A stretch of DNA of 56,551 nt, the filler included, from Stramenopiles sp. TOSAG23-3 (lineage: Eukaryota), in assembly GCA_900128585.1 (NCBI GenBank). It is 4 parts of 4 records of this genome, joined end to end, with 100 filler letters (N's around TTAATTAATTAA, not from the genome) between each part and the next. Parts side by side here need not be neighbours in the genome. Positions count along the whole stretch, not along the records: positions 26,222 to 52,230 come from LT642279.1; 3 more parts are not named here. One strand, given 5' to 3'. The translations under genes were made by a program, and so were the position numbers. The notes beneath the pieces were generated by a model that saw only the letters and a list, made by a program, of their open reading frames with translations, ran no database searches and was not told the DNA's origin. Shown here piece after piece: positions 2,674 to 48,162 of the stretch; positions within the stretch are counted from its first letter, which is position 1; each line of letters starts with the position of its first letter.

Positions 2674-3050
2674 ACTATATGGCTGGCTTTCAGGTTGGCT
2701 GGCTAGCTGGGTAGTGAGTGGGTGGTGGTTGACGTTGGTGATGGACGTTGACGGAAGGGATGAATAATAATCTTCTCTGAATCTGAACGAAAGAAAGATA
2801 GTTGAAACTTCATTCTTTGTGATTTTATTTTACTTTCAATATATATATACATATAAATAAATACCGTAAGAAGTAAAGTCACAAACACCCCAACCACCGA
2901 ACCCAACCACCACAAACATCACCCCCCCCCAATCATCATCCAAAAAATAAAATCATCAAAAAATAATAATAATCATCTCATCAAACCTATTCTATAACTC
3001 TAACTTATAGTCCTAGCAAGAAGAAGTACGAAATGGGTTGGAAGAGCACA

Positions 3051-3320
3051 AAGAAGAAGAAGTAGGATGGAAGAAAAGAAGAAGAAGAAAAGAAAGAAGA
3101 AGAAAAGAAGAAGGAAGAACAGAAGAAAGAAGAAGAAGAAGAAGAAGAAAGAAGAAGAAAGAAGAAGAAAGAAGAAGAAGAAAAGAAGAAGGAGGAGGCN
3201 NNNNNNNNNNNNNNNNNNNNNNNNNNNNNNNNNNNNNAGAAGAAGAAAGAAGAAGAAAGAAGAAGAAAGAAGAAGAAGAAAAGAAGAAGGAGGAGGCAAG
3301 AAGAAAAGAAGAAGAAAGAA
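3051..3320. repeat. (GAA)n purine microsatellite containing an assembly gap (N 3200-3237)
   Basis: Direct reading; lies in the divergent PEX3/bL19m spacer. Confidence 0.95.
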
Positions 3321-3805
3321 TTTAAAGTATACGATGGATCGTATTTAAATATTATTCTTTACCTATATATTCTATTTATTCCTATTGTTTTAAATATTAA
3401 ATAGCCTTTTATATAGAAATAGAACAGGAATTAAGAAGTTCCCTCTCCATTTCATCTCTATCTCCACTCTCTGTATTACTATTTAACTTAGTATTCTATA
3501 TACGTACTTTATAAAACAAATACATTTTTTTATTTTTTACACAGTATTTGTCTTCTTCTTCTTCTCTATTATTTTTTTTTTTTTTTTATTATTTTTTTAT
3601 AATAATAATAATAAATGGTGGGGTGTGAGTTACAAAAAAAATAGAACAGAAATTATTGTAAAGAAAGAGAGAACGTATGAACGCAAATTACGAGAAAAAA
3701 AAAAACAGAAGAACGAGCGAACAATTGATTTGTAATCGTGCGCTGTGCCTGTGATTTTTTTAACAGGTGAATACACATATATACTTTACTTACCTACCTC
3801 CTACC

Positions 3806-5870: not shown

Positions 5871-6396
5871 GAAGTAATCTCTCTCTTCTCTCCTAAAGGT
5901 TATAGCAAAGGATTTATTATGTTTAGTTAATTCTATAGGTAATAGACTACGATTACGACAAGTTAAACTCCGTCCTATCCAAATCCAAATCCTAAACCTA
6001 ATCCTACGAGGTAATCCTAATCCAAAGAAAGAAGGATGGATGGAAGAAGACTAATTACTAATTTAAAATATAACTAACTAGAACAAGAACAAGAACAAGA
6101 ACAAGAAGAATATTAAAAAATACAATAAATACAATAGCAAATGACATCATCTTCTATTATTTATTATAAAGACTCTAACTCCCATTATTATTATTACAAT
6201 GATGAAGGATATATATGCTATGTATATGTAAATAGAGGTATATTTTATCGGTGGCTAATTGTGCTTCATTCTCTTGCCTCCTCTCCATCTCCATCAAATT
6301 TACTATAAAAGCAATTTAGATAGACGATTATAATAATATTACATAGACATAATAGGTCTATTTATTATAAAAAGGATGTATATTATTGTATTAGTA

Positions 6397-6690
6397 GAGA
6401 AGAAAAGAAGAAGAAGAAGAAGAAGAAGAAGAAGAAGAAGAAGAAGAAGAAGAAGAAGAAAGAAGAAGAAGAAGAAAGAAGAACAAAAGAAGAAGAGAGA
6501 AGATAGAAGAAAGAAGAAGACGAAGAAGAAGACAAAAGAAGAAGAGAGAAGATAGAAGAAAGAAGAAGACGAAGAAGAAGAAAGAAGAAAGAAGAACATA
6601 GAAGAACATAGAAGAAGATAGAAGAAGAAGCAAGCAGCAGGAAGAGAACATAGAAGAAGATAGAATAGATGATGAAGAATGATGATGATG
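6397..6690. repeat. (GAA)n microsatellite grading into (GAT)n, with an internal higher-order duplication
   Basis: Direct reading; unit gaagagagaagatagaagaaagaagaagacgaagaagaag occurs twice. Confidence 0.92.
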
Positions 6691-10074: not shown

Positions 10075-10474
10075 CTAAAGTAAGTATGAAAAAACAAAAT
10101 ACATAGTATGTTTTAAGACTCTCATTTTTAAATCAATTACTATTTCAAATCCAACCCTGATCCTATCTTGATTTTTTAATTTTTTTATTTCGTTTCGTCG
10201 TTGATGATTGTCAATCATCACAGAGGAATTATTTTTATTCCAATGAGAAGAATTATTACCAGGTGNNNNNNNNACTCATCAGAGTCACTTGGAGAATCAA
10301 TCATCCCTTTATTGCCAGAACTCGAATAGCGGCTGGACTTGTGTTGTGATTGATAAGAGATTTTTCATTTTTGTAAACTAAAATGCACTTAAATCGGATA
10401 AGAATTACATACTTAATCCACCGTTGTATTTTCACACTTCTCTGAACGAACGTTGACCTTCATCACCAAGATTG

Positions 10475-11530
10475 TTAACGATCCAACAGAAACAATCCAT
10501 CGTAATTTTTCCACGCTTCTCGTAATGCATGTCGCCCTTCAGCATCAATCCCGTTAATTTTCAAATTCATCTTTGTCAACGAAGTATTCACTTTCAACGC
10601 CTCTGCAACATATTTTGCCCCTTCAGCACCAATGTCGTTAAGTTCCAAACCAATCTCTGTCAACGAAGTATTCACTTTCAACACCTCTGCAACATCTTTT
10701 GCACCTTCAGCACCAATTTTGTTACATCCCAACTCAATCTTTGTCAACGAAGTATTCACTTTCAACGCCTCTACAACATATTTTGCCCCTTCAGCACCAA
10801 TGTTGTTATTTCCCAAATCAATCTTTGTCAACAAAGTATTCACTTTCAACACCTCTGCAACATCTTTTGTCACTTCAGCACCAATATTGTTAGTTCTCAA
10901 ATCAATCTCTATCAACGAAGGATTTACTTTCATCGCCTCTACAACATCTTTTGCCCCTTCAGCACCAATGTGGTTATAACCCAAATTAATCTTTGTTAAC
11001 GAAGTATTCACTTTCAACGCCGCTGCAACATATTTTGCCCCTTCAGCACCGATGTTGTTCTGTACCAAATTGATCTCTGTCAACGAAGTATTCACTTTCA
11101 ACGCCTCTGCAACATATTTTGCCCCTTCAGCACCAATGTGGTTATAACCCAACATAATCTTTGTCAACGAAGTATTCACTTTCAACGCCTCTGCAACATA
11201 TTTTGTCCCTTCAGCAACAATGTTGAAATGTTCCAAATCAATCGTGGAATAAAAATACGAGTAATACAGTGCTCTTCTTCCTCTGGCATAACACCTAAGA
11301 CTTTGCGTCTTTTCCCACAATATTTTCAGTTTTAATAAGTTATCGACATGATGGTTGTGAACATATTTACACGTCCCCAAAAGACTTGCCCAACACTTAA
11401 AGTCACCGCGAAGAAAGTCCATCATAAATACAAGTAACGCGTCCGGGAGCTCCTTCAGTGTCCTGATACCGTCCTCCTCCTTACTTGTCTTCCCCCTTTT
11501 CTTATCACTCTCGACTAATAAAATTGCCAT
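10475..11530 (-). CDS. F-box-like plus RNI-type (NLRC3-like) leucine-rich repeat protein
   Basis: N-terminal LKELPDALLVFMMDFL...WASLLGTCKYV fits the F-box pattern; eight 28-aa repeats AEGAKYVAEALKVNTSLTxIxLxxNxIG; visibly more AT-rich than neighbouring CDSs. Confidence 0.9.
   Translation of the reverse strand: MAILLVESDKKRGKTSKEEDGIRTLKELPDALLVFMMDFLRGDFKCWASLLGTCKYVHNHHVDNLLKLKILWEKTQSLRCYARGRRALYYSYFYSTIDLEHFNIVAEGTKYVAEALKVNTSLTKIMLGYNHIGAEGAKYVAEALKVNTSLTEINLVQNNIGAEGAKYVAAALKVNTSLTKINLGYNHIGAEGAKDVVEAMKVNPSLIEIDLRTNNIGAEVTKDVAEVLKVNTLLTKIDLGNNNIGAEGAKYVVEALKVNTSLTKIELGCNKIGAEGAKDVAEVLKVNTSLTEIGLELNDIGAEGAKYVAEALKVNTSLTKMNLKINGIDAEGRHALREAWKNYDGLFLLDR
10552..11222. repeat. Coding tandem array of eight 84-bp LRR units
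   Basis: Core gtcaacgaagtattcactttcaac (with minor variants) recurs at 10575, 10659, 10743, 10827, 10911, 10995, 11079 and 11163. Confidence 0.95.
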
Positions 11531-11925: not shown

Positions 11926-12110
11926 ATTAATACTCGTCTGTCGTCATCTGATATAATAGAAGAAGAGCGACGAAGGTTGGTTGTTGTAATATTATAATGA
12001 ATATTTATAATAATAGCACCAGGGTTGGAACTGAAATCGTAATTGATATTATTAATATACGTAAAATATAAAAAATGAGAGAGTTTTAAATCTATTAAAG
12101 CATATTATTA

Positions 12111-27345: not shown

Positions 27346-28452
27346 ATGTCAGCAGCCAGTGAGCCAAAAATCGAAGAGTCTCTTGAAGGGGCAGACTCCC
27401 CAGAACAGACGAGCGCGGGAGAGCTTGAAAGCAAGTCCGACCCGGACACGGAAAAGAAAAATCTAATTTCGGAGACTATGGTTCAACCGCTTGAGATTGA
27501 AGTCTCGAGCAATGAAAAGGACGCGAAGAAGACCAAGGCTGGCCTGTGCGAGAGCGGTGCCCTACTTCAGTGGGCGGGCGTGTGCTTGTGGGCCTCCTTC
27601 GGCGTCACGTTGCGAATCTTCATGGGCTTCATACCTGCCGAGCAGGGCTCGTTCATTGCCATGTTCGGAAAGAGTTTTCTGCTGCAGAATATTCTCGGTT
27701 CATTCATTCTGGGAGCCCTTTCGTCGCTGACGAAAAACATGTCAAAGACTACCAAGTTTCACCTGTCGCCCGCCGTTACTACCGGTTTCTGTGGGAGCCT
27801 GACCACCTGGTCGAGTTGGCAACAATCGATCGCGGTGAAGTTTGTCTCCAACAAAGTCGCCGACGGCCTTTTGAACTACTCCCTGGGCCACGCGTTGTTC
27901 TACATCGCATTTCGGGGGGGAATACACATGGCTGAGACCATCTCCGCGTGCAGACCGGCCGAAGGCAAGAAGGACGGCGCGCCCGTTAAAGGCAGTATGC
28001 TGGAAAAGTTCACGTTCGGGCTCTTTCTGAGCGTGTACGTCTTGCTGGTGGTACTGATTGCCGTTGCGGGCCAAGAATACCGTCACATGTACTTTGGGGC
28101 CTTTTTTGGTGGCGCCGGTGCTATGCTCCGTTACGTTCTGGGAAAGTTCAACAAAGCTGGACAGATTCCTTTGTTTACGCTGTTAGCCAACGTCCTCGGG
28201 TCCATTTTTGTTGCCGCGGTCACGCGTTCCCTCTACCACGCCAGTGTCGCCGGGAACGCCTTCGTCCCAGGCCAAGGAAACTGGGCAGTCGATATCGGGG
28301 TTGGGGGTATCCTCGGCTTTGGGGGTGCGTTGACGACCGTATCTTCCTACATTGGTGAGATCCACAAGCTACCACGTGGTCAAATGTATTTGTACGCCAT
28401 TTTGAGTTTCTTCTCCACGCAGCTCTTCATGGTCATCATCAACTCTTTGTAA
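27346..28452 (+). CDS. FEX: Fluoride exporter FEX (two fused Fluc/CrcB domains)
   Basis: GVTLR, NILGSFILG, TTGFCGSLTTWSSW, then GAMLRY, TLLANVLGS, GFGGALTTVSSY; multiple TM helices. Confidence 0.92.
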   Translation: MSAASEPKIEESLEGADSPEQTSAGELESKSDPDTEKKNLISETMVQPLEIEVSSNEKDAKKTKAGLCESGALLQWAGVCLWASFGVTLRIFMGFIPAEQGSFIAMFGKSFLLQNILGSFILGALSSLTKNMSKTTKFHLSPAVTTGFCGSLTTWSSWQQSIAVKFVSNKVADGLLNYSLGHALFYIAFRGGIHMAETISACRPAEGKKDGAPVKGSMLEKFTFGLFLSVYVLLVVLIAVAGQEYRHMYFGAFFGGAGAMLRYVLGKFNKAGQIPLFTLLANVLGSIFVAAVTRSLYHASVAGNAFVPGQGNWAVDIGVGGILGFGGALTTVSSYIGEIHKLPRGQMYLYAILSFFSTQLFMVIINSL

Positions 28453-28461
28453 ATTTTTACT

Positions 28462-28632
28462 TGGAGTTGGGTGTATCCTCGGCTTTGGGGGTTCGGTTCG
28501 TTGACGACCGTATCTTCCTACATTGGTGAGATCCACAAGCTACCACATGGTCAAATGTATTTGTACGCCATCTTGAGTTTCTTCTCCACGCAGCTCGTCA
28601 TGGCCAATCATCAAGTCTTTGTAAATATTTTA
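28462..28632 (+). pseudogene. Diverged tandem duplicate of the FEX 3' end
   Basis: Near-copy of ~28297-28459 with substitutions and small indels (extra ggttc; ggccaatc versus ggtcatc). Confidence 0.9.
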
Positions 28633-33698: not shown

Positions 33699-34119
33699 CA
33701 GAAGAAGGCAGAGAGAAGGAAGAGAAAAAATACCTCGGGAAAATCCCGCCAAAAATTCCCCAAATACACAAACGTATCGAAGCTGCCGGGATAAATAGCC
33801 CAGCATATGTAAGGTAATCACTCTGTCATAAAAAAGTATGCAGACCACACTTTGCAATTATTGTTTCAATTTATTCCTACTACATACAATCTGTAAATCC
33901 AAGTACGTACCGGTTTATTAATAAAAAAATAATAATAAAAAAAAAAAAAAGAAGAATAATATTAAAATTAATAATAATAATAACAGCAGCCAACAACAAT
34001 TTTCTTGTTTTTATTATATTATAATAATTAAAGAGAAGAAGTAGAAGAAGAAAAAAAATAAAAAAAAAATAATAATAAAAATAATAATGTGAAGGACACA
34101 TCTTCATCATCCCCGCCCA

Positions 34120-34199
34120 TCATCTTCTTCTTCTTTTTTTCTTTTTTCTTCTTCTTTTTCTTCTTTCTTCTTCTTCTTCTTCTTCTTCTTCTTCTTCTT

Positions 34200-34228
<29 letters not shown>
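34120..34228. repeat. (TTC)n microsatellite
   Basis: Direct reading; divergent spacer. Confidence 0.95.
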
Positions 34229-34230
<2 letters not shown>

Positions 34231-34466
34231 TTAATAAAAAATATAATAATAAAATATTCTTATTATAATACGGTAAAATATTATTATTATACTATAAAAT
34301 AGTACACACATCATCATCACATTGGTAAAACTCTGCTGGGTCAAAAAACAAACTTCGAATACGCTTTGTATTCAGACACCACTGAAACAATTTATCAATG
34401 CCGACAAATTCCATGAATGTGCGTCACGGATGTCTTCTTAGTAACTCAATTCGCTGCTGCTCTGCC

Positions 34467-37345: not shown

Positions 37346-37626
37346 AGCAGCTAAAGCGGTTTGACGAGGTGGTGCAAACAACCGAGAATCGATCTCGTTA
37401 CGTGCAAAGTATAAAATCAATATCACCCAATGGCGTTCGGACACGTTCAATTCCTATGGTAAAGGAAACTCGATTGATTCATAATCCTTTTGTTAGCCTT
37501 TTAAATTTTCCATAACTCTTCAAGTATCAATTATATAGTATTACAAAAAGAGGAGTTGTATAAGTTATAAATATATTGGTGGTGACATCATCATTGGTTG
37601 TAAATAATTATTTTGTGGATGCGCGA

Positions 37627-37860
37627 TCTTCTTCTTTTTTCTTCTTTCTTCTTCTTTCTTTCTTCTTCTTTCTTTCTTCTTCTTTCTTCTTTCTTCTTCT
37701 TTTATTTCTTCTTCTTATTTTCTTCTTCTTTTATTTCTTCTTCTTCTTCTTCTTCTTCTTCTTCTTCTTCTTTTCTTCTTCTTCTTCTTCTTCTTCTTCT
37801 TCTTCTTCTTCATCTTCATCATCTTCTTCTTCTTCTTCTTCTTCTTCTTCTTCTTCTTCT
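37627..37860. repeat. Long (TTC)n microsatellite
   Basis: Direct reading; HCCS/TIM21-like divergent spacer. Confidence 0.95.
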
Positions 37861-38284
37861 TTATATTAATTATTTCATTTCTTCTTCTTTGTTCTTCCTT
37901 ATTATTTTTGCTGTCATCCTTCTTCTTTTTTCCCAATTTTATTTTTTTTTCCATAAAGATTTTGAGAGAAGAAGAAGAGTATAATTTTTTACTTTCTCGC
38001 TATTATAATATACTAAAATAACTACGTTTGTTTGTACTCTTCAAACTATTTTTTAAAAATATTTCAATTCGAATAATAATAATTGTTATTTTTTTTTTTC
38101 GCCGATGACGAAGCGGCGAGTCCTCCATTTTTTTTACACAGTTAATTGCATTATATATCTTTAATCTATGTTGAATGTTAAAGAAGAAATCACTTCAAAT
38201 GTAACGTAAACCTTTTTATTTGTATGGAACGTCGTTGTATGGAACCTCGTGCGTGCACATTTCATTACAACAAGAACGAAAACA

Positions 38285-41914: not shown

Positions 41915-42000
41915 ATCTGTAAACGAACGCACGGATACCACCAAGACAACAACAATCTGTAACCGAACGCACGGATACCACCAAGGCAACAATAATCTGT
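41915..42000. repeat. 40-bp tandem repeat (two full copies plus a start of a third)
   Basis: atctgtaa[a/c]cgaacgcacggataccaccaag[a/g]caacaa[c/t]a at 41915 and 41955; atctgt again at 41995. Confidence 0.92.
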
Positions 42001-42488
42001 GAAGGACTCATTATCATTTTCAAACATATTGCCAAACATGGGATCATTGGAATGCATTTATTGATATGTTGAACAAGATCTTGACGAAGAAACCGACAGT
42101 TCTTTCAAATTTATTATTATACAAATAGAAAGGAGTTTCATTTATGTTTTGAATACAGTCTGACAATAGGCAATACAAAGTTAATAATAAGAGGAAGATG
42201 ATGAAAGAGGAGAAATATGATAGAACGACTATGATGAGATACCAATACCAAGAAATAATATATATTTACAACTCCTCCGCCACCATGAATCCATGGCATG
42301 TATGAGTGAGAAGTAAAATAAATAAATGTAACTAGGTATATGTTCAACAATGAAGAGATTCGATTGTAACAATTTATAGTAGGGTCTAGTATGAAATCGT
42401 TTAAATATAATTTTCTTTGAGAACGCGGCGTTTCAAATTCGACACCATTGAAAGTCGGCCATTACCCGCTTTGTCTACGAACTATTCT

Positions 42489-43322
42489 ATGGGTAGGAAA
42501 AAAAAGAAAAGAAAGGGTAGACGTTCGCAGGCCGAAGACCTTCAGAGGATTAAAAAAAAAACACTTTTCAGAGGGGGCGATAACAGTTCCTTGCCAACTT
42601 TTGATTCCCATCGGCCGGTTACGCTTCCCAATCTTGTTCGAAGCCTGGCAAATATACCATTAGAAAAAACTACGAAAAAGAAGAAGCGGAAGAAAAAGCA
42701 AGACGTCATTCTTTCGAACCGACTAGCGGCTTCTGGACTCAAACACTTCAAGGGAAGCTTTCTTGCAAAGAATGCTGCCTATTTGGATAAATTCGACACC
42801 ACTGCTGGGAAAGGACGGGAGAATTCTCCCCCCGCGACCCCGAGGGTTCGCGGGCGAATGCTCAAAATGAAAAGACCAGACCTGGCTCCCCCGATTCCTG
42901 CTAGGGGCATCATGAAATTGCGCTGTTCCAAAAATCAAACTCTTCAATTAAAAAGTTTAGGCTGTTCGTATGTTCCAAACGAGATGTTGGCGGAAGATGA
43001 GAAGGCCAAGGAATGGTTGAAAAAAAATAGAAACTGCGATCTTTTCATGAAAAAAGTAGATCCTACGATAGACGAAAATGCGTATTCCATAAACGAAGAA
43101 GCACAGTTGGCGGACTCCTCATCCCACATGTTCGGTGTTCACTTTCGTGGCGCCTTGTTCATACCGAACGGTTCTACCTGGGACGGCAACAAGCTACTGA
43201 AGGTAAGGGCCGAAGCTCGCAGAAGGATGAAAAAATACGAAAAGAAGAAGAAGAAGGCGAGAAGGGAACAGCGGCGGCGGGATCGAAACGAAAAGTTCTT
43301 GTTGAGTGGAGGGGTGCTGTAA
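42489..43322 (+). CDS. Hypothetical Lys/Arg-rich protein
   Basis: ATG-initiated 277-aa ORF with several NLS-like basic runs; family not recognised. Confidence 0.7.
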   Translation: MGRKKKKRKGRRSQAEDLQRIKKKTLFRGGDNSSLPTFDSHRPVTLPNLVRSLANIPLEKTTKKKKRKKKQDVILSNRLAASGLKHFKGSFLAKNAAYLDKFDTTAGKGRENSPPATPRVRGRMLKMKRPDLAPPIPARGIMKLRCSKNQTLQLKSLGCSYVPNEMLAEDEKAKEWLKKNRNCDLFMKKVDPTIDENAYSINEEAQLADSSSHMFGVHFRGALFIPNGSTWDGNKLLKVRAEARRRMKKYEKKKKKARREQRRRDRNEKFLLSGGVL

Positions 43323-43380
43323 TCCAAAAGTGGGAAGTGGGAGTTGATGTGTTTATATTTTTTAAATAAATTATTTTGTT

Positions 43381-43507
43381 TCCATCCATATTTGTAGTAT
43401 ATATAGCGTTTATAATTTGTTTTTATACAATAACGTTTTGCTCAGACGAGTAATGAGTCTTCAGTTAAAATGTACATTTTGATGATTGATGATAATGTTT
43501 TTTAATC
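43381..43507 (+). repeat. Left copy of ~130-bp direct repeat flanking LRR gene 2
   Basis: tccatccatatttgtagtatat...ctcagacgagtaatgagtct...gataatgttttttaatc; matches 44819-44949. Confidence 0.95.
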
Positions 43508-43892
43508 GGCAGTTGTGAAGTCTGAAGAAGAAACAAATCAATCATCGATCAAATTCAAATCGATCAAATCGGAAGTCTAAACCAACAGTCACATTTCAAT
43601 AACAAAAGACCCACGCTTCACGCCAACTGGACATCGACAAACCCTTCGACCACGCTTGCCTGGCTCCTTTGCCGTAAGAAAATGAAACACGGATTACCAT
43701 AGAGCATAGCCATTAAACCTAAAACCTATTCGAGGATATGCCTTTGCGTTTTTTGATGATTCAATTCATTTTGTTTCCCCTTTCGTTGTTAATTAAAAAT
43801 AAATAAAATTAAAAAAAGTTATGATAATTAAAAGTCTTATCTTGCTCGTTAAACGGACGATCGTCGGTTCTCAAGTCGTTGTCGGAATTTGC

Positions 43893-44729
43893 TTAATAAT
43901 AATCCAGATCCGTACTAGTAAACAAATCCGTATCATAGTACGTTCTTTCTTGGCAATCTAACCGAGATAAATGAACATCTAAGTGATACTTACTCTTTCC
44001 TTTAGCCTCCCAAACTCTTCCGAATTTGTTTTTTAATTCAGGTGAGATATTGGTGTTATCTTCCAACCAAAGATCAGTCAATGATGGTAATGAACCATTC
44101 TCAACTAGCTCAAGAAGACCTTGACAACCAACATTACCAATCTTATTACCATTCAAACCAAGAGAATCCAACGATACCATCTCTGGTAGGACCTTACAAA
44201 TTGAAGCAATGCCATTATCTCCAATATTGTTGTAAGACAAAGAAAGAAACCTTAAGTTTGTCATTGTTGGTAAGGCCGAAGCGATTGTTCGGCAGCCTTC
44301 ATCTCCAATATTGTTTTTAGACAAATAAAGCCTCTTCAAGTTTGTCATTGTTCTTAAGGCCGGAGCGATTGTTCGGCAGCCTTCATCTCCAATATTGTTT
44401 GTAGACAAATAAAGCTTCTCCAAGCTTGTCATTGTTCTTAAAGCGGGCGCTACGAATTGAAGTCCTTCATCTCCGTACTGGTTTTGGTTCAAATACAGTA
44501 GAATCAACCCCGTCATTTTCATTAACGCTGGCGCAAGTATTTTACACCCTTCGGGAGTGATCTTCTTCCCGGAAATATCCAACGGCCCCGTGAACCCCTC
44601 GCCTTTCTTCATCAAGTCCGCTTTATCCTTCCCGACGACCCTTTCCACGGCGTCCCAATCAACGTCCGTGAAGCCTTCAGGTTTTGGGACCGTGGGCGCA
44701 TTGTCTTGAGTGGTTGCTAAGGAGGCCAT
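43893..44729 (-). CDS. RNI-type leucine-rich repeat protein (LRR gene 2)
   Basis: 28-aa repeats L..LYLS.NNIGDEGCRTIA.AL.TMTN; near-identical 84-bp units around 44254-44470; first ATG at 44729. Confidence 0.9.
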   Translation of the reverse strand: MASLATTQDNAPTVPKPEGFTDVDWDAVERVVGKDKADLMKKGEGFTGPLDISGKKITPEGCKILAPALMKMTGLILLYLNQNQYGDEGLQFVAPALRTMTSLEKLYLSTNNIGDEGCRTIAPALRTMTNLKRLYLSKNNIGDEGCRTIASALPTMTNLRFLSLSYNNIGDNGIASICKVLPEMVSLDSLGLNGNKIGNVGCQGLLELVENGSLPSLTDLWLEDNTNISPELKNKFGRVWEAKGKSKYHLDVHLSRLDCQERTYYDTDLFTSTDLDYY

Positions 44730-44818
44730 TTTTCTTTTCAAGCGTTCTTCTTCTTCGAATCAATTATTTAACAGAACCAAGAACATTTTCTACTCTTTTG
44801 CTTGTTCAACATTCTCTC

Positions 44819-44949
44819 TCCATCCATATTTGTAGTATATTTAGAACGTTTATAATTTGTTTTTATACAATAACGTTTTGCTCAGACGAGTAATGAGTCT
44901 TTAGTTAAAATGTACATTTTGATGATATTGATGATAATGTTTTTTAATC
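44819..44949 (+). repeat. Right copy of ~130-bp direct repeat flanking LRR gene 2
   Basis: Differs from 43381-43507 by about two substitutions and two 2-nt insertions. Confidence 0.95.
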
Positions 44950-45393
44950 ATCATCATCCGTTAACGAACTATAACTAAAATATGTTTATGATCAGAGGAC
45001 CTCCTCCTAATACCAATTGGTATTTACCGTAGATCTAGTACTACGGCGAACCATTAATAATTTGAGTATAATACAAAAAAAGGCTTTTTTCTCCCCCTCC
45101 TCTCTCCTCTTTAAATAAAAAAAAATTATTATTATTATTTTGTTTCCGTCCTCCTTCCTCCTTTCAGTCTTTATTAGTTAAAATATTATGCATTTTCTTT
45201 TCTTCTGATTATTATATACCAGTATTATTTTTTTATCCTCACTCAGCTGTAATACCAAAGTACAGTAATCCTCGTGCATTCGCATACATTACACTGGTCT
45301 AACACTCCCCCAAAAAATCATTGAAACCCCCAAACCCAACCAATGCTTGGGTGAACTTCTTTCACAACGACCGCCTGCGCGCTCCTTGTCATC

Positions 45394-47280
45394 ATGGGAT
45401 GCATACATTCTGCCGCGGCAGAGACGCCCCACGGGCTTCACTACAAGGATGTCCATCGACTGCGATCTCAAAGTCAGTACGGGAAGGTGCTGAGGGGTAA
45501 GCAGGTGTCCGAGCGAAAGCGCCGCTCTTCAACACAGGGGAAGGCACGTTACATCAAGCATTTCCAATCCGACACCAAAACGTTCAACAGTGTTTATGAT
45601 GGAGACCCGAAAGACCGAAAATTGCGGTTGGGCAAAGGCGTCGAAGGATCGGTGTTTAAGGCCAAACATAAACTTTCCGGCCTTGATGTTGCAGTAAAAG
45701 TGTTGAACAAGGCATTCCTTGACGACGAAGAGGCGAGACTATTGCGGAAAGAGGTTGAGATGCTGTCTTTGTTGGACCACCCTAACGTTTTGCGGATCAT
45801 CGAAAGCTATGAAGACAGCCAGCGGATCTTTTTGGTAAACGAATACTGCACAGGTGGGGCGTTGAGCAAGGCGGTTAATTTATCTGTCGATCCAACCAAA
45901 TTTTCGTTGAACGACCTATTGAAGGGGCCGTTCCAACGGAAGAAAGGTCTGCAAGAGGGCGAAGTCCAGCACATCATCGCCCAAATCTCGGAAGCGCTGG
46001 CGTATTTGCACAAACGAAACATGGCGCACCGAGACTTGAAGTTGGACAACATCATGATCCTTGAACCACGCCAATCCGACCAGCCAATTTCACAATGTAC
46101 CGTGAAGGTCATCGATTTTGGCTTCACTGAGCAGTACAACGAAACGCAGACAGCCAATGTTCGCAACCAGATGGCCGCCTCTTTTAAATCGCACGGCGTA
46201 GTGGGCACAGGCCCATTCATGGCCCCGGAAATTGCCAGCGAGTATCATCGCGTGTTCGCTGGAACAGAGTCCTGCCTTAACGTTCACAAGTACGACCCAC
46301 AAAAGACGGACTGTTGGGCACTGGGGGTAATTGCGTACACCCTCCTTGCGAGGGCATTGCCGTTTCCAGACATTCACGACGGCGAGTTTTTGAAAAAAGT
46401 GAAGAATTACACTCTGGACTTTCGCAAAGGGGTGTGGAAAGGGATCAGCGAGGACGCCAAAGATTTTATCCAGGGTTTGTTGGTGGTCGACCCTCTCGGG
46501 CGAATGTCTATGATGGAAGCCCTGAAACACACTTGGCTAAGTTCAGCCAAGGGCTCGCTTTCGACAGGGGCGGACGGGGGGGCATTCAGCTTGGCATGCT
46601 TTGACGCGTACTGCAACAATTTGTGTCCCTTTCGACGGGCGTTGATCCACCATTTGGCGATTTTTTGCCCGAAAAGAGAAACCGCGCGGTTGGCACAAAT
46701 GTTTCGATTGCTCGACATCGAAGGCAATGGGATCGTTACTGCTACCGAGTTGACGCAAGTACTCGTGACGGTCTCGGGGAAAACAATAGCCGAGGCTGTA
46801 AGCGAAATCGATAGGTACCGCCCCTGCATTTTTGGCACTAGCGGGGAACTGACATTTACACGGTTCTTGGCGGCGCAAATTTCAATGAAGCGCTTTCTTG
46901 AGAATGAATTGTTCTTAGAGATGCTTGGGATGTTATTTTCTCAGATTGACAGCGACCAAGACGGTTTCATCAGCGCGGATGATATGTTTGATGCTCTTGT
47001 TGCTACGGAAGACATTACCTCCTGCTGGTCCAACTTGATCATCGAAATGGTCGAATTCCTTGCTCCCGAAGAGATTGACCCAACAAAGAGCATGGTCGAC
47101 TTTGAAGCTTTTCAAAAATTTTTCAAGTTTACCGAGCGCCCCCCGCACGAAGGGGCTGCGCGAAGCTTCCTCTGCCATGACGGCTCTGTATTCCTTACCC
47201 CAGCGAACTTTGTGAGAGAAGCCACTTCGGACGACATGCTGTTACCTGCTGTGTACGAAGTAAATTTGGAAATCAAATAA
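45394..47280 (+). CDS. Calcium-dependent protein kinase-like (kinase plus EF-hands)
   Basis: MGC acylation start; LGKGVEGSV, VAVK, HRDLKLDN, DFG, APE, DCWALG; EF loops DIEGNGIVTATE and DSDQDGFISADD. Confidence 0.92.
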   Translation: MGCIHSAAAETPHGLHYKDVHRLRSQSQYGKVLRGKQVSERKRRSSTQGKARYIKHFQSDTKTFNSVYDGDPKDRKLRLGKGVEGSVFKAKHKLSGLDVAVKVLNKAFLDDEEARLLRKEVEMLSLLDHPNVLRIIESYEDSQRIFLVNEYCTGGALSKAVNLSVDPTKFSLNDLLKGPFQRKKGLQEGEVQHIIAQISEALAYLHKRNMAHRDLKLDNIMILEPRQSDQPISQCTVKVIDFGFTEQYNETQTANVRNQMAASFKSHGVVGTGPFMAPEIASEYHRVFAGTESCLNVHKYDPQKTDCWALGVIAYTLLARALPFPDIHDGEFLKKVKNYTLDFRKGVWKGISEDAKDFIQGLLVVDPLGRMSMMEALKHTWLSSAKGSLSTGADGGAFSLACFDAYCNNLCPFRRALIHHLAIFCPKRETARLAQMFRLLDIEGNGIVTATELTQVLVTVSGKTIAEAVSEIDRYRPCIFGTSGELTFTRFLAAQISMKRFLENELFLEMLGMLFSQIDSDQDGFISADDMFDALVATEDITSCWSNLIIEMVEFLAPEEIDPTKSMVDFEAFQKFFKFTERPPHEGAARSFLCHDGSVFLTPANFVREATSDDMLLPAVYEVNLEIK

Positions 47281-47384: not shown

Positions 47385-48162
47385 TCAAAAAGTAATTAAT
47401 AAAATTGTCATGTCGTCCACAACCGACCATCAGTCTGAGTTGACAAATATCATTAATTTGAGAACACAGATAATTGGATATCACCATACTAGTCATATAA
47501 TTTGTTTTTCACCATGCTATGTTTCCAAAGGGTTCTACTTCGGCTGACGATTTTACCTTTTGTCCATTGTTCGTTCATTGGCACCAGACCTTGGTTGACG
47601 TTTTTGAGAGAGAGAAATGGTAGGAGTCTCCTATATTTTTTTTATTAAATAAATACTACATCATAGTCGTCTAATATTGCTTTTATATATTTTTAGAGAT
47701 TTCTTTAAAAGTTTGTGTCTTATTATTCTTCTTGTAAGTGGCAGTAAGAGATCTATTAATATATTATAATAAAATATATGATGAGTCTATTAGTTTTAAC
47801 GTATTCTTTTTCTTTTCTTCTTCTGATTATTTTGGATGATGATGATGTTTTTTAATCCGTTGATGTACCGTATAGAATTTATATAAGCAATATTTGCAAC
47901 AAAATAAAAAACTACTTTTATAATTGGGTGAACGAAATGAATTAATATAAAAAATTTGAGAAGCACGCCGTAAAGAAAAAATATTATATATATATATAAT
48001 AATAAAATATTAATACGCAAACGCCCATTTATTTTGATACACGAAGGATTATATGGTCACTGAACAGTCCTATCGGTCTTTCGTTGCCAACGCTTTTTTT
48101 TAAAGCATGGATTAAATCGATTAGGTGAAAACAAAAACAAAGAACATTTGGCGCCGTGTGGG

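Follow-up and report, generated by a model that had tools for sequence, protein, structure and literature searches.

A short direct repeat around an LRR gene in an uncultured marine protist looks more like a local copying accident than proof of a mobile cassette

How does a single gene come to lie between two near-identical copies of a non-coding sequence, and did it travel there together with them? The question is raised by an RNI-type LRR gene of Stramenopiles sp. TOSAG23-3, which lies in gene-dense eukaryotic DNA with mostly few introns (the window, that is, the whole 56,551-nt stretch of DNA analyzed here). The sequence-only reading of this locus held that the gene had arrived with an unusually long target duplication or by integration of a circular intermediate. 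We tentatively favor a simple explanation, to which we assign a probability of about 0.45, in which some 130 bp of spacer was copied locally by a templated process (filler DNA or a template switch) and the LRR gene is a bystander. The features on which the argument turns are as follows, with the repeat termed R and its left and right copies R1 and R2.

42489..43322, + strand: left neighbor, a conserved gene of 277 aa, lysine-rich and outside any Pfam family
43381..43507, + strand: R1, left copy of the direct repeat, 127 nt, 26% G+C
43508..44818, no strand: enclosed segment of 1311 bp, made up of the LRR coding sequence with non-coding DNA on its 3' side (385 bp) and its 5' side (89 bp)
43893..44729, - strand: intronless RNI-type LRR gene, 278 aa plus stop, sole long ORF of the segment
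44819..44949, + strand: R2, right copy of the direct repeat, 131 nt
45394..47280, + strand: right neighbor, a calcium-dependent-type protein kinase of 628 aa with a kinase domain and EF hands

The duplicated spacer segment and the gene it encloses

When R1 and R2 were aligned with their 80-nt flanks using MAFFT, 125 of 131 aligned columns were the same, the differences being two substitutions and two 2-nt indels. Identity sets in abruptly at 43381/44819 (TCCATCC...) and ends abruptly at 43507/44949 (...TTTTTTAATC). A repeat search resolved the pair into three mutually collinear blocks in direct orientation on the + strand, namely 43373-43406/44811-44844 (34 nt, 88%, spacing 1438), 43398-43486/44838-44926 (89 nt, 96%, spacing 1440) and 43485-43507/44927-44949 (23 nt, 100%, spacing 1442). 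Counted over the 127 nt, the copies are 95% identical with a substitution difference of 1.6%, and their longest perfect block is 55 nt. A blastn search of the window with 43300-45100 as query likewise recovered the pair (139 columns, 93.5%, E 1.9e-54), and a 46-mer from the core of R occurs twice in the window versus zero occurrences expected from 100 shuffles. R1 starts 58 nt past the stop codon of the + strand left neighbor and is situated between convergent genes. R2 begins 89 nt upstream of the ATG of the LRR gene, on the strand opposite to that gene, and occupies the spacer from which the LRR and kinase genes diverge. The earlier description of near-identical direct repeats at 43381-43507 and 44819-44949, which enclose 1311 bp with only an RNI-type LRR gene and of which the right copy lies about 90 bp upstream of the LRR ATG, is thereby borne out.

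The LRR protein matches PF13516 (LRR_6) in three stretches (E 7.3e-21) and has 28-residue repeats of the LRR_6 type; at the DNA level, three internal 84-nt repeats produce a periodicity at 44211-44462. The protein has 378 homologues at E<=0.001. Four distinct full-length variants in other assemblies are 278 aa each, at least 90% identical, and differ by 1-4 residues. The non-coding parts of the 1311-bp segment had no blastn match elsewhere in the window. Three more distant relatives at 61-67% identity (P0002-P0004) share a module that runs from DWDAVERVVGK to a C-terminal KAKGK motif, and their N-terminal extensions differ, one of them having a PX domain match. Such a pattern suggests shuffling of the LRR module between genes in this lineage. 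In a public 99-aa gene model (P0123), the LRR repeats are skipped, and residues 1 to 84 of the LRR protein are followed directly by 15 residues read from a small ORF at 43618-43713 (minus strand) in the 3' non-coding region of the LRR gene. P0123 is probably a wrong intron call, because the four distinct full-length variants of 278 aa are found in metagenome assemblies.

The possibility that the assembler made one of the copies, for example by joining allelic contig ends from pooled single-cell genomes, deserves consideration in a draft window with N runs. There are 310 N in the window in total, with zero N within 43200-45420. A further 96% tandem duplicate is present at a gene end in the window, and the 1.6% substitution difference between R1 and R2 falls within the variation that the proteins show between strains. 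However, a unique 1.3-kb gene separates the copies, a pattern that joined overlapping ends do not yield, and contigs from other strains appear to carry both flanking genes together with the LRR gene. Moreover, a 754-nt contig that holds the first 84 LRR residues and about 500 nt of upstream DNA could traverse R2 if it is collinear with the window, judging by these sizes. We therefore regard an assembly artefact as very improbable, in agreement with the sequence-only reading, which had argued against a simple assembly duplication from the differences between the copies.

The evidence from other strains was gathered by exact-sequence look-up. The LRR protein of the window (P0121) is on three contigs, the longest being 12,567 nt; a 99% identical kinase (P0127) is on one contig of 12,567 nt, and the longest contig of a left-neighbor variant (P0139) is also 12,567 nt, so that these three would share a contig on the strength of equal sizes. 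By the same token, a second left-neighbor variant (P0138) and an LRR variant (P0122) would share a contig, as the longest contig is 15,782 nt in both. Other-strain contigs of 3,679 and 3,237 nt also carry proteins of this locus. Since P0138, P0139 and the kinase P0127 differ from the window's own proteins, the assemblies are independent, and the LRR gene appears to be resident at the same locus in at least two other strains. Mis-assembly of the locus is unlikely because the gene is placed there in those strains. The two other-strain contigs bear on the presence of the gene and not on the R copies, and an empty allele is still compatible with them.

The left neighbor has 99% homologues in other assemblies, and its nearest named homologue is Stramenopile-MAST_4_protein_1150 at 70%, so that the DNA probably comes from a MAST-4-type marine stramenopile. 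In the sister lineage, homologues of the left neighbor (70%) were found on contigs no longer than 9329 nt. Those of the kinase (60%) were found on contigs of 11,811 nt, 11,095 nt and less, and no contig size is common to the two sets. A run listing named 20 rows from 16 studies, with population metagenomes that appear to contain parts of this DNA. The kinase protein gave 76 pattern matches among metagenome contigs, of which 0 were confirmed. Among prokaryote-genome contigs, the LRR protein matched two distant bacterial loci at 35-40% identity, judged irrelevant here, and its six pattern matches among viral contigs yielded 0 confirmed.

Known element classes compared with the repeat

LTR retrotransposons and TRIM elements are recognized by TG...CA termini, a target duplication of 4-6 nt, a primer-binding site and a polypurine tract, with gag/pol if autonomous, and TRIM elements consist of a short internal region between direct terminal repeats some 100-250 nt long. 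The locus resembles these elements in its direct terminal repeats and short internal region but differs in the hallmarks themselves. Direct reading of the sequence found that the repeats start with TCCATCC and finish with TTAATC, with no TG...CA, and that the outer flanks, TTGTT and ATCAT, are unlike each other and form no short target duplication. No TGG-type primer-binding site follows either repeat in either orientation, and the sequence before R2, where a polypurine tract was sought, is pyrimidine-rich; the reverse orientation likewise fails. The segment contains no gag/pol, transposase or reverse-transcriptase ORF.

A retrocopy made by LINE machinery carries a 3' poly-A tract beside its target duplication. 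Here, the end of the segment on the 3' side of the LRR gene abuts R1 as GGCAGTTGTG (+ strand), without a T/A run. Cut-and-paste transposons, MITEs and Pack-type elements are marked by terminal inverted repeats (TIRs) and a short target duplication, and no inverted pair was found at the ends of R or of the segment; the five inverted pairs within 42000-46500 (21-32 nt, 73-78% complementary) lie away from those ends. ORF inspection and direct reading thus uphold the earlier statement that transposase, reverse transcriptase, poly-A tail and TG...CA end are all lacking at this locus.

R was also compared with structured RNAs. An Rfam scan returned 10 matches at E<=10, all below the gathering threshold, with the best at 24 bits versus a threshold of 60. 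Fold z-scores of +1.44, +0.88, +0.42 and -0.26 indicate no stable fold. A snoRNA reading of the TGATGA and CTGA motifs was rejected: the boxes are in the wrong order on both strands, and the weak Rfam matches differ between the copies.

How local R is was assessed within the window and in contig collections. Single-sequence nhmmer searches of the 56.5-kb window with R1 or R2 (E<=10) returned the other copy only, and an exact 24-mer from the core of R had 0 matches in the metagenome, prokaryote-genome and viral contig collections. In total, two near-identical copies and one or two degenerate relatives, discussed below, are present within 4.5 kb, with none in the other 52 kb.

These data bear on a further reading, in which R is one member of a small family of repeats (a non-autonomous element, or a module that recurs in spacers), with the gene again a bystander and R1 and R2 near-identical through youth or through a short gene-conversion tract. 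The next spacer holds at least one older degenerate relative, similarly oriented, and a second may lie beside R2. The window also has a 24-nt motif, probably the end of a retroposon-tail stub, at five sites, all on the + strand. The confinement of every detectable relative to 4.5 kb speaks against such a family, as does the failure to find TIRs, target duplications or a stable fold in R. R also lacks the 24-nt motif, and its alignments to the motif loci score 21-27, within a background of 30-32 for natural windows scored in the same way, and R was accordingly rejected as a relative of these loci. We consider the family reading quite unlikely.

The 24-nt motif loci do share with R their nature as short non-coding spacer repeats, and R1 too lies just behind a gene end in sense orientation. 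The five motif sites (10051, 12112, 12148, 35706 and 47284, with at most one mismatch, versus 0 expected) are mostly located shortly behind the ends of + strand genes, and one copy starts 4 nt past the kinase stop codon. The copies have a common left end, and their rightward extent varies.

Decayed relatives of the repeat and the probable direction of copying

Whether R1 or R2 is the older copy can be approached through the sequence around them and through weaker resemblances to R in the neighboring spacers. Three further features are relevant.

43341..43380, + strand: outer left flank of R1 ('a'), not duplicated at R2, resembling 47624-47654 and, more weakly, 45110-45147
45107..45241, + strand: possible further degenerate relative, weakly supported, with short collinear matches to the R tail
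47624..47857, + strand: degenerate relative of 'a' plus R in the spacer between the kinase gene and the dual-specificity phosphatase gene that comes after it, its left part resembling the R1 flank and its right end the R tail

The best match to R elsewhere in the window is 47829-47857, which corresponds to the last 32 nt of R with one mismatch and two gaps. It scores 42-43 against the R tail, versus 30-32 for the next-best among 516 natural window-strand comparisons. Approximately 175 nt to its left, 47624-47654 matches 43341-43371 in 'a' with a score of 28, which was reached by 0 of 400 AT-rich background 40-mers. As the two matches are collinear and on the same strand, the kinase-phosphatase spacer seems to hold an older, decayed unit of 'a' plus R.

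The candidate at 45107-45241 is a possible relative of R. It contains a 17/18 match to 43370-43387, which straddles the left edge of R1 and has a score reached by 1 of 300 shuffles. Its remaining similarity to R is no better than the low-complexity background, for which reason it is kept as possible only, and its best outside match is a TTC-rich low-complexity stretch (score 49). An nhmmer profile score for it as a third copy was set aside, the candidate itself being in the training alignment. Alignments with low gap penalties were discarded as a test, since other AT-rich regions score equally high.

The left flank of R2 is unlike both 'a' and the degenerate units. Against 47624-47654 it scores 14, a value reached by 204 of 400 background sequences, and in a further comparison 73 of 400 background sequences score as well. 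Comparisons of the right flanks among the copies gave none above background; when the right flank of R2 was set against that of the older unit, its score was reached by 62 of 400 background sequences. Because the flank and tail of R1 resemble the older unit and R2 is without that flank, the comparison suggests, on the basis of short, AT-rich similarities, that the old copy is R1, with its left context, and that R2 is partial and derived.

This polarity is in keeping with the favored templated copy, in which the direction of copying and the repair mechanism are both deduced. The LRR gene would have been resident before the duplication, and the approximately 130 bp of spacer just past its 3' end (R1) would have served as template in its original context. 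A break or a stalled replication fork would have arisen in the LRR-kinase spacer, whereupon a free 3' end primed on R1 sequence 1.4 kb away, copied about 130 nt and rejoined. A single copying event would in this manner have produced R2 in the same orientation just upstream of the LRR gene, and the position of the gene between direct repeats would be a by-product. Replicative template switching of this sort is also named FoSTeS/MMBIR.

Several properties of the locus are consistent with this proposal. The edges of the copy are sharp, and TIRs, short target duplications, TG...CA ends, poly-A and an enzyme ORF are all missing. A near template exists in cis, 1.44 kb away on the same strand and matching in 125 of 131 columns, as is found for templated insertions. 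Small local duplications are not unusual here, given the tandem copy with a 171-nt period (96%) in the same window. R is confined to this locus within the window, and the LRR gene appears to occupy the same place in other strains.

Filler DNA is described as the result of 3' ends that invade a template from a break, the template being more often a cis sequence of that same molecule (PMC7156093). According to a related account, many of the insertions found where breaks were repaired make up direct repeats together with sequence close by (PMC2943611). The locus is like such filler DNA/SD-MMEJ events in its nearby cis template, same orientation, sharp junctions and lack of transposon hallmarks (PMC7156093, PMC2943611). 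It is unlike them in that 130 nt is long for such patches, which are far shorter in the cases described (14 bp in one worked example, PMC7156093), and in that its junctions are ambiguous, since the TCC at the left junction and the ATC run at the right one are readable either as microhomology or as flank. Longer templated insertions also occur. Also counting against the templated copy are the degenerate relatives, which mean that the sequence was copied more than once nearby and could signal an active element.

Possible arrival of the gene with the repeat, and predicted consequences of the arrangement

The principal rival to the templated copy starts from an ancestral spacer with one R. The 1311-bp LRR segment would have entered at the right edge of this R, which was duplicated as a side effect. 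The ancestral order would have been the left neighbor, 'a'-R, and then 44950 onward with the kinase. Three routes may be envisaged, namely widely staggered nicks, a replicative template switch that returned 127 nt back, or a single crossover with a circle bearing a homologue of R, which would thereby integrate.

The order R-gene-R is the geometry expected from insertion with target duplication, and the retention of the old left flank at R1 and its loss at R2 fit gene arrival as well as they fit the templated copy. The LRR gene is oriented opposite to both neighbors. Its relatives place the LRR module on other N-termini (e.g. a PX domain), and here 23 residues precede the shared module. LRR gene 1 of the same window is bracketed by inverted repeats; together with the occurrence of the module on varied N-termini, this gives a higher prior that LRR genes move in this lineage. 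For the circular route, PMC11879418 describes that direct repeats on one chromosome can recombine and that circles reintegrate at homologous chromosomal sequence. The repeat-gene-repeat geometry is like that of such Campbell-type or eccDNA integration, but the homology here is just 127 nt, with a longest perfect block of 55 nt.

Composition lends itself to a similar argument at first sight. The third-position G+C (GC3) of the LRR gene is 0.43, under both neighbors (0.51 and 0.61). However, GC3 is 0.41 in LRR gene 1 and 0.41 in a gene of 2554 aa in the window, and since low GC3 is common to these two genes, it is not a sign of foreign origin; a foreign origin of the LRR gene from composition was rejected.

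Other observations weigh against gene arrival. A target duplication of 127 nt is far outside the usual range and would be exceptional. The right flank of R2 is unlike the flank of the older unit, as judged by the background scores above. The LRR gene is on both of the linked other-strain contigs, and the segment is without a poly-A tract, TIRs or an enzyme gene. We consider the arrival of the gene with the repeat, a widened form of the sequence-only reading, somewhat unlikely, although copying of 130 bp alone beside a resident gene and gene arrival fit the data equally well.

A bolder version, which we regard as a long shot, is that the LRR gene is a single-gene cassette that moves via a 1.44-kb circle with R-type recombination sites. 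A small cassette array would then have left its worn recombination sites in three successive spacers as the degenerate R-like units. If this were true, site-bounded gene cassettes would have a eukaryotic counterpart here, in a lineage in which LRR modules are visibly reshuffled.

LRR gene 1 (10475-11530, minus strand) is itself noteworthy. It lies between 35-nt inverted repeats at 10132-10166 and 12013-12047 that are 86% complementary and whose 28-nt core occurs at these two places only. Just outside of them is more inverted similarity, TTTTAAGACTCTCATTTTT on the left and AAAAATGAGAGAGTTTTAAA on the right, and the 24-nt motif is present in direct orientation on both sides of the gene. LRR gene 1 and its inverted repeats may constitute a gene-carrying inverted-repeat element. 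A window search found that R does not flank this gene. The proteins of LRR genes 1 and 2, the latter being the gene between R1 and R2, are only 35-37% identical, and LRR gene 1 has no DNA match to the cassette by blastn.

Returning to the locus itself, the duplication of R looks more like an ordinary local copying accident than proof of a mobile cassette. Error-prone repair and insertion-duplication are familiar ways for a gene to end up between short spacer copies without mobile machinery, and the locus is a new instance in an uncultured marine protist, not a new kind of element. Direct repeats can recombine or undergo single-strand annealing, by which the DNA between them is deleted or circularized. 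From this general knowledge, we predict, under any of these readings and in line with the sequence-only reading, that recombination between R1 and R2 could delete the LRR gene or release a 1.44-kb circle. If the templated copy is the correct reading, the locus provides a clean natural case of small templated duplication for a compact protist genome, and the LRR gene would be prone to deletion or circularization, with possible presence/absence variation among wild populations of an abundant marine grazer. If the gene instead arrived with the duplication, the locus would document the spread of LRR genes in these genomes.

Other repeated DNA was noted elsewhere in the window. The tandem duplication at 28294-28622 has a period of 171 nt and a 112-nt core that is 96% identical; it spans the final ~160 nt of the gene at 27346-28452, including the stop codon, such that the second gene end is orphaned. 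Long microsatellites of the GAA/TTC type are found in many spacers (3022-3335, 6381-6678, 34109-34262, 37597-37896 and others), and one of them adjoins an N run near 3201.
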